The notes under the pieces: model-generated | Databases searched by the model: none | Seen by the model: only the letters and a program-made list of their open reading frames with translations | Told to the model about the DNA's origin: nothing | Translations under genes and position numbers: made by a program | Assembly (NCBI GenBank): GCA_016223205.1 | Contig: JACRPM010000006.1 | Location: 60,257-124,256 of the forward strand | Direction of reading: 5' to 3' | Length of the DNA stretch: 64,000 bases | Origin: Candidatus Saganbacteria bacterium | GTDB lineage: Bacteria; Margulisbacteria; WOR-1; XYC2-FULL-46-14; WPAF01 | Part shown: positions 57,568 through 64,000 of the stretch, in pieces | How positions within the stretch are numbered: position 1 is the stretch's first letter | Layout: every line of letters starts with the position of its first letter

Positions 57568-57575
<8 letters not shown>
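56448..57575 (+). CDS. carA: Carbamoyl-phosphate synthase small subunit
   Basis: GEVVFNT, TDPSY, LSNGP, GICLGHQ, QYHPEA. Confidence 0.97.
57199..57220. repeat. Perfect 22 bp palindrome in-frame within carA
   Basis: GCCTGCCTGCCGGCAGGCAGGC (encodes GLPAGRQA). Confidence 0.85.
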
Positions 57576-60759
<3,184 letters not shown>

Positions 60760-60772
60760 GGAGGTAAATATC

Positions 60773-61090
60773 ATGGAACTGCACGTGCTCATAAACTGGA
60801 TCGTCATGGCCATCAGCCTGATCGGTTCTGCCGTGATCATCTGGGGCATCCTGCTGGTCATCAAGGATTTCCTGTTCAATCTCCTCTCGGACGATCCCCA
60901 ATCCAAACGGCTGATGCGGCAAAAGCTGGGATCCTATTTGATTTTGGGATTGGAGTTCTTCATTGCGGCGGACATTATCCGTACCATCATTAGGCCGGAC
61001 TGGAACGACATCGGTATGCTGGCCGCCATCATCGCCATCAGAACAGTATTAAGCTATTTTCTGGGGATGGAGTTGAGGGAGAAGGCGTAA
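60773..61090 (+). CDS. DUF1622-family membrane protein
   Basis: 'LGLEFFIAADIIRT...IRTVLSYFL..E'. Confidence 0.85.
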   Translation: MELHVLINWIVMAISLIGSAVIIWGILLVIKDFLFNLLSDDPQSKRLMRQKLGSYLILGLEFFIAADIIRTIIRPDWNDIGMLAAIIAIRTVLSYFLGMELREKA

Positions 61091-61140
61091 GATTATAATG
61101 CTAGATAATTAATGAAAGCAAAACGTTGTATATTTATAAG

Positions 61141-61169
61141 TTGCTTTTTTGGTAGAAAGGAAATATAAT
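61141..61169 (+). promoter_or_regulatory. sigma70 promoter, leaderless configuration
   Basis: TTGCTT-17-TATAAT, 6 nt before ATG 61176. Confidence 0.65.
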
Positions 61170-61175
61170 TGATAC

Positions 61176-61880
61176 ATGGTGGATCATCCCAAGCTCCATA
61201 AGTCCCCGCTTATCGAGTCTTTATTTGAAATCCAATTTAACCCTGTCTCGGATTATGCCTTATTTGCAGGGTCAGTTTACAGTTCAATAAAAAATGATTT
61301 TTCAAATACCGAATTACTCGTTCCTCCCGAATTGCCAGATATCGGTGAATGGCCCAAAATATTGAGGCATCGTTTTAAACGAAATGATGGTTCGGCATTA
61401 TTTCAATTAGGAAACGGGATTATGTCAGTCAATCTAACTAAATATGATAAATTTACTCATTTTATCAGTTTAATAAAAAATATATTAAGAGAAATTATTG
61501 CTATTAATTCCAATATACAAGTTAATCGATTGGGATTGCGATATATTAATAGGATCCCATTAAACAATAAAAGCGTGGCTGATGTATTATCAATAAATAT
61601 ATCAACACCAACTAAGTTAAGCAATCAAATAGAAGCGATTAATATTAGAATCATGTTAAAACAAACAAAATCAGGGAAAATATTATTACGAATTACAAAT
61701 CCAATAGAAAACGGAAAGCCATTAGATGAAATTATATTCGACTTAGATTGTTCTGTAATACTAGAAAATGTGCCCATAGACATAAGACATATTGAAGAAT
61801 GGATAAATACGGCCCACGATTCAATTTATGATAACTTTATTGGCAGTCTTAATTCAGAATATAAAAAGGCTATCGAATGA
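61176..61880 (+). CDS. TIGR04255-family-like protein
   Basis: 'L.KSPLIESLFEIQF', 'FQLG', 'RLGLRYINRI', 'FDLD', 'AHD....F'; AT-rich. Confidence 0.75.
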   Translation: MVDHPKLHKSPLIESLFEIQFNPVSDYALFAGSVYSSIKNDFSNTELLVPPELPDIGEWPKILRHRFKRNDGSALFQLGNGIMSVNLTKYDKFTHFISLIKNILREIIAINSNIQVNRLGLRYINRIPLNNKSVADVLSINISTPTKLSNQIEAINIRIMLKQTKSGKILLRITNPIENGKPLDEIIFDLDCSVILENVPIDIRHIEEWINTAHDSIYDNFIGSLNSEYKKAIE

Positions 61881-62230
61881 ACACACAAGTATTAAGAGAA
61901 AAATCACCCTTTGCATCTTCTGATTATGCGTTTGAGGATGAATGGCAAAGGAGGATTAATATTAGGGAGCATCCTTCTGTGACTTTGATTAAAAAGTATC
62001 CTATTTTGCCTTCAGAAAAGGAGTTTAGCGGGTACTATTACTTATCGGGTGAAAGTGTGCGTAGCATTCCTTTTTCTGAATTCCCAGAACTAGATGAATT
62101 TAAGGTATTTGGATATGGGGTGCCTGGGGAAGATATGTTGTTCGAAAGCCCAAATTTTATACCTAAAAGCTTTTATGAATTAAAATCGAGAGGCTTTAAA
62201 AGGATTAATGATCCAAGGCTTAAAATGTGA
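61877..62230 (+). CDS. Hypothetical protein
   Basis: ATGA overlap with upstream gene; AT-rich. Confidence 0.6.
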   Translation: MNTQVLREKSPFASSDYAFEDEWQRRINIREHPSVTLIKKYPILPSEKEFSGYYYLSGESVRSIPFSEFPELDEFKVFGYGVPGEDMLFESPNFIPKSFYELKSRGFKRINDPRLKM

Positions 62231-62236
62231 TAATTT

Positions 62237-62812
62237 ATGTATGCTGCCCCAAAAGAAAAAATTGACCAAAGTGATATATTTAAAAATATTTACTTCCATT
62301 CAATAGATAATACCCAAGAAGCAATTCTTATTACACCTATTTGTGATATGTATCAAGGCAAGGCAGATTATCTCATATTTTGTGGAGTATTTTTATTTAA
62401 TGAAATCATCATGAAATTTATTGAAAAATGCTGGAAAGAAGAAATACCCCCAATATTTACAAGTAAAAAGAGGTATGAAGAATTGTCGGGGAGTCAAAAA
62501 AAGAATGTATCTAAGAGGATTGCAGAATTAAGATCCAATTTTCATTTTCCGCGATATCATTGGCTTGATCCTTTTCCTGGCGAAGAAGAAAGCCATATAA
62601 TTGATTTTCAATGTTTAGCTTCAATAAATATTGACGAATTTGCTGAATCCGACCATTATGAGAGGCTTTTTAGTATTAATTCCCCGTACAGAGAACAAAT
62701 ACCTGCTAGATATAGTGCGTATATGTCAAGGGTAGGTACTCCTGATTCTAAAGAATCAGAAAAAATCATTGACCATGCTTCTAAAGATGCATTTAAAACC
62801 TTTAATTCCTAA
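62237..62812 (+). CDS. Hypothetical protein, possible MazF/PemK-like fold
   Basis: 'QSDIF...AILITPICD...IIDFQCLASI...RLFSINSPYREQI..RYSAYMSRVG'. Confidence 0.6.
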   Translation: MYAAPKEKIDQSDIFKNIYFHSIDNTQEAILITPICDMYQGKADYLIFCGVFLFNEIIMKFIEKCWKEEIPPIFTSKKRYEELSGSQKKNVSKRIAELRSNFHFPRYHWLDPFPGEEESHIIDFQCLASINIDEFAESDHYERLFSINSPYREQIPARYSAYMSRVGTPDSKESEKIIDHASKDAFKTFNS

Positions 62813-62874
62813 TTGATTAGTTAATAAAAGTTTAAAAATGGCAATATTTACAAATTCCGAATTATTACATAGAT

Positions 62875-63111
62875 ATGCATAATAATTGGACGCTTGAAGA
62901 GTTAAAAAGATATTTCACCTTCACGGCAGAAGATCAAAACACTTCTGACCCCGACATCCTCTATCGCGGGGAACTGATAGATGTGGAGAGGGGAGGGATA
63001 AGGTCCTATGAAGAGGAAAAGCCAAAAACCGCAACAAAATTCACGGAGCTTTCTCTGCCTCCTCCAACCCTCTACCCGTCAGACATAAAAACACTAAGAC
63101 CCAAACCCTAA
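62875..63111 (+). CDS. Small hypothetical protein or gene remnant
   Basis: 78 aa ORF, no recognisable motif or SD. Confidence 0.35.
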   Translation: MHNNWTLEELKRYFTFTAEDQNTSDPDILYRGELIDVERGGIRSYEEEKPKTATKFTELSLPPPTLYPSDIKTLRPKP

Positions 63112-63112
63112 A

Positions 63113-63649
63113 CTATCGGCTTTGAAGTATTTGCTCAACTCTTTTGTCAAGTTTTTCCATTTCTTGTAGGTAATTCATTTTCTGTCTTTCGATATCCAGC
63201 TCCAGTAAATATTTATTCAGGCCCTCGTCCTTAATGACGGTCAAGATCTGCTTTACCGGAGTAGTGCCGGACATAAAATATGCCGCCACCTTGGTGCTAT
63301 TAAGGTCGGCTAAACTTATAACCATCATGAGGCGCAAAGCCCGAACGGTTTGCGCGGTAATGTCCTGCTTGCTGGGTACGGGCAGTCCAGATGAGGGATG
63401 GGAGTGGTAAAAGCCCAGAGTATCCATCTTATATTCCTCAAAGAACTGGTTGGCCCGCAGGCAATCGGTTTCCGCAATACCAAACTCATGTTTCTCCCTG
63501 AATTCGATGAAAGCAAAGTTGGGGACGGGGAAAACTCCAAGGATCAAATTGCCGATCCCGCCCAAAAAGCCGCCCGCCTCCGCCGGGTAGTTGTCCCGGC
63601 AGTGCGTAATTATCAGATCAAAGTGGCGCTTAATGATAATGAGGTCCAT
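63113..63649 (-). CDS. JAB/MPN (Mov34) metallopeptidase
   Basis: E.GG.L plus JAMM motif 'YHSHP...PSKQD'; start moved to ATG 63649 because the longer ORF runs into rnpB. Confidence 0.85.
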   Translation of the reverse strand: MDLIIIKRHFDLIITHCRDNYPAEAGGFLGGIGNLILGVFPVPNFAFIEFREKHEFGIAETDCLRANQFFEEYKMDTLGFYHSHPSSGLPVPSKQDITAQTVRALRLMMVISLADLNSTKVAAYFMSGTTPVKQILTVIKDEGLNKYLLELDIERQKMNYLQEMEKLDKRVEQILQSR

Positions 63650-63658
63650 AAAAATAAT

Positions 63659-64000
63659 GGGCGGGCCGGTAAGCCGGGTTCTGTCGTTGATCGACCATCT
63701 GTCTGGGATAGACATTGCTGGCTACCTCGGTGCGGCCTACTCGGGATCATAACGACGCGAGCTACGTCTTTCCCTATTTGGCCTTGCTCCGCGTGGGGTT
63801 TACATCCCGCCATGTTACCATGGCGGGACGGGAGCTCTTACCTCCCGTTTTCACCATCGCCTCTCCCCCGGTAAACCGGGGAAGGTGGGCTGTGTAATTT
63901 CTGTTGCACTTTCCTTCAGGTTGCCCTGAGTCGCCGTTAGCGACCACGCCGCTCTGCGGAGCCCGGACTTTCCTCCGTGAACCTAAGCGCTTGCGCGCAT
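63659..64000 (-). ncRNA. rnpB: RNase P RNA, type A (5' end beyond the window)
   Basis: GAGGAAAGTCCGGGCTCC, GGAAAGTGCAACAGAAA, GAGCAAGGCCAAATAGG, ACAGAACCCGGCTTAC. Confidence 0.96.

Follow-up and report, generated by a model that had tools for sequence, protein, structure and literature searches.

A horizontally acquired three-gene cassette combining TIGR04255, a small middle protein and a MazF/CcdB-fold protein in Candidatus Saganbacteria: a credible toxin-antitoxin-like module

An AT-rich island of three genes (designated g1, g2 and g3 in order of transcription) was analysed in a stretch of 64,000 nucleotides from a Candidatus Saganbacteria bacterium (GenBank assembly GCA_016223205.1, contig JACRPM010000006.1, positions 60,257 to 124,256 of the forward strand); this whole stretch is referred to as the window. 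With a probability of roughly 60%, the island is a horizontally acquired, three-component toxin-antitoxin-like (possibly abortive-infection) module, in which g3 would be the toxin, g2 its neutraliser or adaptor, and g1 a regulator or sensor. It is credible that this cassette is a new module of its kind. The three-component model is the most economical one for the following reasons: other cassettes carry MazF toxins in the slot of g3, which shares their fold; the g3 domain is also placed behind receiver domains, as a gated output; in the middle protein, a variable head is followed by a conserved tail specific to the toxin; and the first gene is constant, coupled to the middle gene, and endowed with a conserved polar site. 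The third part of such an architecture would be neither SecB nor a known regulator.

A preliminary description of this DNA, made from the letters alone, had reported an abrupt drop in guanine-plus-cytosine (GC) content between the DUF1622 and JAB genes and three tightly coupled open reading frames (ORFs), and both observations were borne out. The GC content of the island (61100-62830, 1.7 kb) is 31.9%, versus 53.5% for positions 1-61100 of the window; segments of equal length taken elsewhere have a standard deviation of 2.7% and a minimum of 42.7%. The GC profile falls from about 0.55 to 0.25-0.37 over 61100-63050. The first two ORFs overlap by 4 nt, and the second and third are separated by 6 nt (Table 1). 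The same description had assigned g1 to TIGR04255 and a MazF-like fold to g3, which held as well, and had added a weak fourth ORF and a promoter, which fared less well, as set out further below.

The model of g3 obtained with AlphaFold2 (AF2; predicted local distance difference test (pLDDT) 72.8, predicted template modelling score (pTM) 0.72) has the SH3-like barrel and the C-terminal helix of MazF and CcdB, with the strands in MazF order and a two-helix insertion (about 45 residues, approximately 54-99) that separates strand 3 from strand 4 and has a smaller size in relatives of 166-170 residues. The fold was established with three structure libraries. In the Foldseek search of the PDB all matches shown are MazF or Kid (best expectation value (E) 1.5e-3, template modelling (TM) score to the target about 0.6). 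In the VIA-align search (48,161 chains), the first eleven ranks are taken by MazF, Kid, CcdB and one toxin from a toxin-antitoxin complex, with Z of 8.4-6.3 and alignments of 82-110 residues (for the entry with Z 8.4, root-mean-square deviation 3.4 over 102 aligned), followed at rank 12 by the type III toxin CptN (Z 5.6), the first unrelated entry having Z 4.6. The five best BFVD matches are phage PemK-like proteins. The helical insertion and the TPxCD motif, which had both been pointed out beforehand, are present in the AF2 model and in the family alignment.

At the level of sequence, g3 was searched without a match in Pfam, NCBIfam, PADLOC-DB v2.0.0 and PHROG; at E<=1 a chance match to Autoind_synth was all that Pfam returned, so that g3 is not a member of PF02452 by sequence. 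Comparison with two PF02452 PemK toxins by hhalign gave a probability of 0.4, the g3 profile found nothing relevant among PDB sequences, the phage records contained no match, and the matches in the ESM Atlas were unnamed clusters only. Eleven family members were recovered by word-indexed search, and 244 cluster representatives at E<=1e-3 (60 of them at E<=1e-10) by exhaustive search. Together, g3 and these proteins make up a family, new at the sequence level, of candidate MazF/CcdB-fold effectors, with the following conserved positions: Q11, F20, T33-P34-x-C36-D37, R106-Y-H-W-L, D123-F-Q, S149-P-x-R-E and R165-V-G-T-P-D. Over 70 family sequences, R165 is the sole invariant residue.

Recurrence of the gene order was evaluated with 13 loci bearing g3 relatives, one from genome contigs (L001) and twelve from metagenomes (L004-L015); two weak loci (L016 and L017, E 2e-4) were left out. 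Two of the 13 (L006 and L012) lack upstream sequence, and 11 were therefore usable. A TIGR04255 gene lies directly upstream in seven of these (L004, L007, L009, L010, L011, L013 and L014; cut by the contig end in L009 and L010). The gene order of the cassette thus recurs elsewhere, on viral contigs as well (see below), as the preliminary description would lead one to expect. In L004 (3310-4101), the TIGR04255 gene is broken into an ORF of 167 aa and one of 93 aa, which correspond to the N- and C-terminal portions of the family model; the break reflects a frameshift or stop, or else an error in sequencing. An unnamed family of 232-264 aa takes the place of TIGR04255 as first gene in three loci (L001, 2388-3182; L005, 4019-4729; L008, 1313-2011); the hhalign probability for these proteins versus TIGR04255 is 0.2, for which reason a relation between the two is not established. 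The first genes of L015 and of a distant relative (L002) are DUF3467-like, with E of 2e-4 and 7e-3, respectively, both short of the Pfam cut-off; the L015 protein matched nothing in the PDB, and a literature search for DUF3467 yielded nothing related.

A middle ORF is present in all 11 usable loci. The direct homologue search with g2 returned g2 itself only, and its relatives were reached solely through synteny; g2 has no match in Pfam, NCBIfam or PADLOC-DB v2.0.0. The middle ORFs of ten other g3 loci share the C-terminal 30 residues of g2 (pairwise E 1e-4 to 5e-8), laid out as an acidic residue, SPxF/W, a short spacer, RGFxRINDPR and then basic residues; the eleventh (L001) retains the first half of this motif only. 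Since the motif is conserved across syntenic loci, g2 is a real gene. The N-terminal parts of the middle proteins are unrelated to one another. The tail is also kept where the first gene is not TIGR04255, and it therefore follows g3 rather than g1.

TIGR04255 genes were then surveyed at 14 places outside the window in the host phylum and at eight viral-contig loci. The ORF after TIGR04255 overlaps its stop codon at all 14 phylum places (by 4 nt in 11, 1 nt in two and 7 nt in one), a third ORF is present at 12 of them, and the GC content of the TIGR04255 gene is lower than that of its locus in every case. At two places (L035, 38.8 bits; L039, 35.1 bits; cut-off 23.1) the third gene is PF02452 PemK_toxin, which in both also matches the PHROG entry 'MazF-like growth inhibitor'; at a further one (L034) it is a distant g3 relative (E 2.6e-11), and in nine of the 12 it has no known family. 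One middle gene is weakly Phd-like, i.e., antitoxin-like (E 2.6e-5, below the cut-off). A middle and a third ORF follow the TIGR04255-like gene in all eight viral loci, the third gene belonging to the g3 family in four (E 7.5e-56, 5e-22, 7e-10 and 9.5e-7); a scan of viral contigs with a pattern from the g3 alignment gave none, and a later scan brought the viral loci with g3 relatives. Third genes are exchanged modularly behind TIGR04255, true PemK toxins included, and the cassettes constitute a conserved three-gene operon with one protein common to different toxin families. Of all additions to the tripartite toxin-antitoxin-like interpretation already put forward in the preliminary description, the PF02452 toxins behind TIGR04255 and a small ORF support it most strongly. 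Of the grounds for refutation that this description had named, those open to computation yielded nothing against the interpretation.

At least five further families of third genes, candidate toxins without a Pfam or NCBIfam match, were observed in TIGR04255 cassettes: L026, L028, L037 and L051 (about 147-154 aa); L027 and L030 (155-163 aa); L031 and L032 (93-97 aa); L036 (203 aa); and L053 (203 aa). A HicA-like identity was considered for the third genes of L031 and L032 and dropped, as neither Pfam nor NCBIfam supported it. Searched against NCBIfam, the products of middle and third genes behind TIGR04255 (26 proteins) gave nothing useful. Because TIGR04255 pairs with PemK and with several third genes of no known family, its cassettes offer a route to new toxins. 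TIGR04255, a curated and unstudied orphan family, gains its first functional context here.

The assignment of g1 to this family is secure: the TIGR04255 hidden Markov model of NCBIfam was matched with 111.9 bits (cut-off 30, E 4.2e-32) over practically the full length (residues 6-233 aligned to positions 1-251 of the 252 in the profile). No match was found in Pfam, among PDB sequences, or in PADLOC-DB v2.0.0 at E<=1, and a weak one was found to phrog_5464, of unknown function (E 4e-8). TIGR04255 is named nowhere in the 8.4 million papers and preprints that could be searched, nor is IPR026349 mentioned in the searchable literature, supplementary tables lying outside that search and description under another name being possible. 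The AF2 model is confident (pLDDT 86.5, pTM 0.84) and consists of a duplicated alpha+beta unit forming a single long antiparallel sheet with helices behind. Its structural neighbours in VIA are Mediator Med18/20 (Z 8.4, 103 aligned), taurocyamine kinase (Z 8.0, 195 aligned), the McsB kinase domain (Z 7.7, 176 aligned) and TATA-binding protein (TBP; Z 7.6, 165 aligned); those in Foldseek are TBP, AdoMetDC and creatine/arginine kinases (E 2e-4 to 2e-3, TM 0.3-0.4). Since these neighbours are generic and tied, no family assignment was drawn from them. SecB was not among the top 50 VIA entries or the Foldseek entries listed.

Residue conservation in g1 was determined over 30 TIGR04255-like proteins drawn from cassettes of all kinds, with the following counts: Y90 29, R118 28, G120 25, R122 28, I124 27, N125 29, D189 27, D191 30 and F221 27. 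R118/R122 and D189/D191 alternate on two adjacent strands of the model, and each Arg or Asp pair would therefore lie on one sheet face. In the model, these Arg and Asp residues look like a ligand, metal or catalytic site, and an invariant polar site fits a ligand-binding or enzymatic role better than that of a passive chaperone.

The resemblance to TBP raises the question of whether g2 and g3 are an ordinary two-part toxin-antitoxin system with g1 as a separate, TBP-like transcriptional autoregulator that provides the DNA binding of which the small middle proteins are devoid. Three-part systems with a dedicated repressor exist, namely omega-epsilon-zeta and PaaR-PaaA-ParE. Many TATA-binding proteins occur among the best Foldseek matches of g1 (E 1.7e-4 to 2e-3), the VIA alignment with TBP is extensive, the middle proteins match no DNA-binding Pfam domain, and the conserved R118 and R122 would suit such a function. 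Set against this, the TM-scores reach 0.3-0.4 only, kinases, AdoMetDC and Mediator subunits score equally, g1 is not basic (isoelectric point (pI) 6.6), the invariant pair D189/D191 is unusual on a DNA-binding face, and stoichiometric co-production is suggested by the 4-nt overlap with g2, which recurs in 11 of the 14 cassettes of the phylum. An autoregulatory g1 is accordingly regarded as unlikely.

A bolder, tentative extension of the three-component model, improbable as it stands, places TIGR04255 at the centre: modular three-gene conflict systems that release interchangeable toxins might form a large class that has gone unrecognised, with TIGR04255 as their master component, either ligand-binding or catalytic. 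It is founded on the invariant RxGxR(Y)IN and DxD site on a duplicated sheet, and on full-length structural neighbours among which are guanidino kinases, protein-arginine kinases (McsB) and enzymes of the glutamine-synthetase type. In such systems g1 would either detect a nucleotide-like signal or act on the middle protein by covalent modification of its Arg-rich tail, and the toxins released would be canonical PemK, the g3 family and several families without a known fold.

The occurrence of the g3 domain in larger proteins bears on whether g3 is a toxin at all. Among 160 g3-family proteins there were 148 near-full-length domain matches, of which 112 are stand-alone and 28 have an N-terminal extension of at least 150 aa. 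The receiver domain PF00072 (Response_reg) was detected in eight of 15 long forms at E<=0.01, once above the gathering score, and ten sampled long forms retain TPxCD, DFQ and RxGxPD. On the conjugative plasmid pREB1 of Acaryochloris marina (L044, NC_009926.1, 2967-6306), an annotated response regulator with a C-terminal g3-relative domain starts 2 nt after a 723-aa GHKL/histidine-kinase-like 'ATP-binding protein'; the pair adjoins a DNA cytosine methyltransferase, a NACHT gene lies 5 kb away, and no g2-like ORF follows the response regulator. This pair can be viewed as a candidate two-component defence system, its effector being of the MazF fold.

Many relatives of g3 thus occupy the C-terminal position of response regulators, which is the usual place of DNA-binding or enzymatic outputs. 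The barrel might accordingly be a non-toxic output domain that binds nucleic acids or a ligand, and the cassette a module for signalling or regulation; the lack of sequence similarity to PemK, the lack of recognisable MazF catalytic residues and the acidic character of the protein point the same way. Such a function is nevertheless doubtful: true PemK toxins hold the same slot in TIGR04255 cassettes, the distribution is sporadic (2/146 phylum genomes) in an AT-rich cassette, relatives are present on viral contigs, and the plasmid relative has a methyltransferase and a NACHT gene as context. In addition, the receiver parts of nine of 13 fused forms weakly match PADLOC PDC-M60B/C (E 1e-6 to 7.5e-3), in the receiver region only; judged from sequence, these matches are a lead and not evidence of membership. 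The receiver fusions suggest that the g3-type effector is also wired to phosphorelay-type defence candidates.

Under the three-component reading, the following mechanism may be envisaged. g3 would be the effector or toxin, with T33, C36, D37, R106, H108, D123 and R165 forming its active or binding site. g2 would be the cognate neutraliser or adaptor (the antitoxin), its basic residues 85-117 binding the mildly acidic g3 and its variable N-terminal part contacting g1. g1 would be the regulatory component, and would either stabilise g2 in the manner of a chaperone or sense a ligand or phage cue as the signal for toxin release. We infer the toxicity of g3, all protein-protein contacts and the trigger from the arrangement as a whole. 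By analogy with MazF the target of g3 would be RNA, with the uncertainty that CcdB, which has the same fold, hits another target.

Known systems share individual features with the cassette. As in MazEF/PemIK/Kid-Kis (PF02452) and CcdAB, the third protein has the barrel with a C-terminal helix, and the equivalent slot of sister cassettes is occupied by canonical PemK toxins; g2 is likewise small, upstream, coupled and conserved in its C-terminal tail, as is familiar from MazE-type neutralisation. In contrast to MazF, Kid and CcdB, g3 has no detectable sequence homology to them, a 45-residue insertion and its own set of motifs; the acidic/basic pattern of MazEF is reversed, g2 has no DNA-binding domain, and the third gene appears obligatory. 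The M. tuberculosis toxin-antitoxin-chaperone (TAC) system and the anti-phage CmdTAC (PMC9098466, PMC11618068, as far as the available parts of these sources describe them) are also three-gene operons with a third protein proposed to control the antitoxin. Unlike there, the third component of the cassette is TIGR04255, which is not SecB-like by sequence (no Pfam match; SecB not listed in the VIA top 50), is encoded first and has an invariant polar site, and g2 has a conserved tail that goes with the family of the toxin rather than with the third component.

A MazF-like domain with a helical insertion is also described, in the available part of PMC13069673, for GajC of type II Gabija, a defence effector acting with the UvrD-type helicase GajB. 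On the strength of that description the two differ: the insertion has five helices in GajC and two in g3, and the partners are a helicase there and TIGR04255 with a small protein here. No GajB is adjacent to the cassette, whose neighbouring products are TIGR04255, the 117-aa protein, DUF1622, the 78-aa ORF and JAB, and no PADLOC Gabija match was obtained at it. The Panacea/NetFlax networks of hyperpromiscuous antitoxins (10.1101/2021.05.07.442387), in which one conserved antitoxin domain is combined with many unrelated toxins and MazF/PemK are among the commonest folds (PMC10440598, available part), are two-gene pairs whose conserved domain is itself the antitoxin, whereas a variable middle protein intervenes in the present cassettes; no mention of tripartite or three-gene systems was found in that part of the source. 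Nor was PemK, MazF or CcdB found mentioned in the available part of the conflict-system paper from the Aravind laboratory (PMC7159879).

Several observations weigh against a toxin-antitoxin-like module. Sequence-level homology of g3 to PemK/MazF is not detectable, and its most conserved segment, residues 149-170, is modelled with the least confidence; this segment may fold only upon a partner. MazF and Kid employ as catalytic residues an Arg at the start of strand 2 and a Thr or Ser after strand 3. At what we take to be the equivalent position of the Arg, inspection of the g3 alignments revealed no conserved Arg; none is conserved N-terminal to TPxCD, the other conserved polar residues being R106, H108, D123 and R165. 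The charges (g3 acidic, pI 5.6; g2 tail basic, pI 9.4) are the reverse of the classical MazE/MazF pattern. The fold matches of g1 are generic (Z 8.4-7.2, many unrelated folds tied), and the immediate neighbours of the island are housekeeping genes (carB and RNase P RNA) rather than a defence island. None of the three proteins matches a family of PADLOC-DB v2.0.0 at E<=1, and hence there is no experimental precedent; the same result, together with the silence of the searchable literature on TIGR04255, agrees with the novelty that had been proposed for the trio.

The island is of foreign origin and sporadically distributed. Its DNA had no match in any of 20 related genomes, in which the carB and RNase P parts of the window alone matched, and the carB-rnpB interval of one relative (G007) lacks the cassette. 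By profile search, g3 relatives occur in 2 of 146 phylum genomes and TIGR04255 in 13 of 146. Direct repeats flanking the island were not found, and contigs from four DNA runs of one study showed the stretch to be contiguous, with no empty site seen. A decaying remnant of horizontal transfer, or small ORFs that are chance non-functional frames, could be argued from the AT-richness, from the absence of a statistically outstanding promoter or terminator and from the split TIGR04255 gene of L004, yet is highly improbable given that all three frames are intact, that the g2 C-terminal motif and the g3 motifs are conserved across distant loci, and that the same DNA is contiguous in a metagenome contig (run X2) with identical fragments in two further runs of the same study, the X2 contig not counting as independent support because the DNA analysed here may itself have come from run X2.

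Table 1. Features of the cassette and its surroundings (positions in the window).
Feature	Position	Strand	Remarks
AT-rich island	61100..62830	.	GC 31.9%; absent from 20/20 related genomes
Promoter-like TTGCTT, 17-nt spacer, TATAAT	61141..61169	+	read by eye; unproven
g1, 234 aa	61176-61880	+	TIGR04255; duplicated alpha+beta fold; polar site Y90, R118, G120, R122, N125, D189, D191
g2, 117 aa	61877-62230	+	4-nt overlap with g1; variable N-terminal part; no family match
g2 C-terminal motif, residues 85-117	62129..62227	+	(D/E)SPxF/W ... RGFxRINDPR; basic; common to 10 other g3 loci
g3, 191 aa	62237-62812	+	unnamed family; MazF/CcdB fold; helical insertion ~54-99; TPxCD, RYHWL, DFQ, SPxRE, RVGTPD
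g4, 78 aa	62875-63111	+	GC 45%; outside cassette
carB	57568-60759		upstream flank
DUF1622 membrane protein	60773-61090		PF07784, E 2.2e-27
Prok-JAB gene	63113 to ~63650	-	PF14464, E 1.4e-8
RNase P RNA, class A	63654-64000	-	233 bits; cut by window end

The leaderless promoter that had been proposed in front of g1 was not confirmed. Its hexamers are present (TTGCTT at 61141-61146, TATAAT at 61164-61169), and the end of TATAAT lies 6 nt 5' of the ATG of g1 at 61176, a geometry that, as read from the letters, would fit a leaderless mRNA. The pair was not among the sites listed by a consensus promoter scan, because its first hexamer matches the consensus at three of six positions, and promoter-like sites in the region are no commoner than in shuffled sequences (12 versus 10.1 +/- 3.5).

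The weak fourth ORF (g4), which had been counted with the cassette, was removed from it. Its GC content is 45%, and homologues were found in two relatives (G007 and G002) convergent to a JAB gene at another locus; in G007 (L046) the JAB gene occupies 719-1351 on the plus strand and a 104-aa g4 homologue 1348-1662 on the minus strand, overlapping the end of JAB. g4 and JAB are therefore a native gene pair, and the cassette in turn ends near 62830 and not at 63111. g4 matched no PADLOC-DB v2.0.0 family at E<=1. The 78-aa protein can be noted as a conserved small partner of the JAB/desampylase-like protein.

The carB-rnpB interval is variable in this lineage. In G007 (L041, G007:C2, 1512-2130), a 106-aa RRM-type RNA-binding protein replaces DUF1622, the cassette and JAB. 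The long JAB ORF of the window (63113-63715) extends about 60 nt into the RNase P RNA gene, and the JAB gene therefore probably begins at an internal Met.

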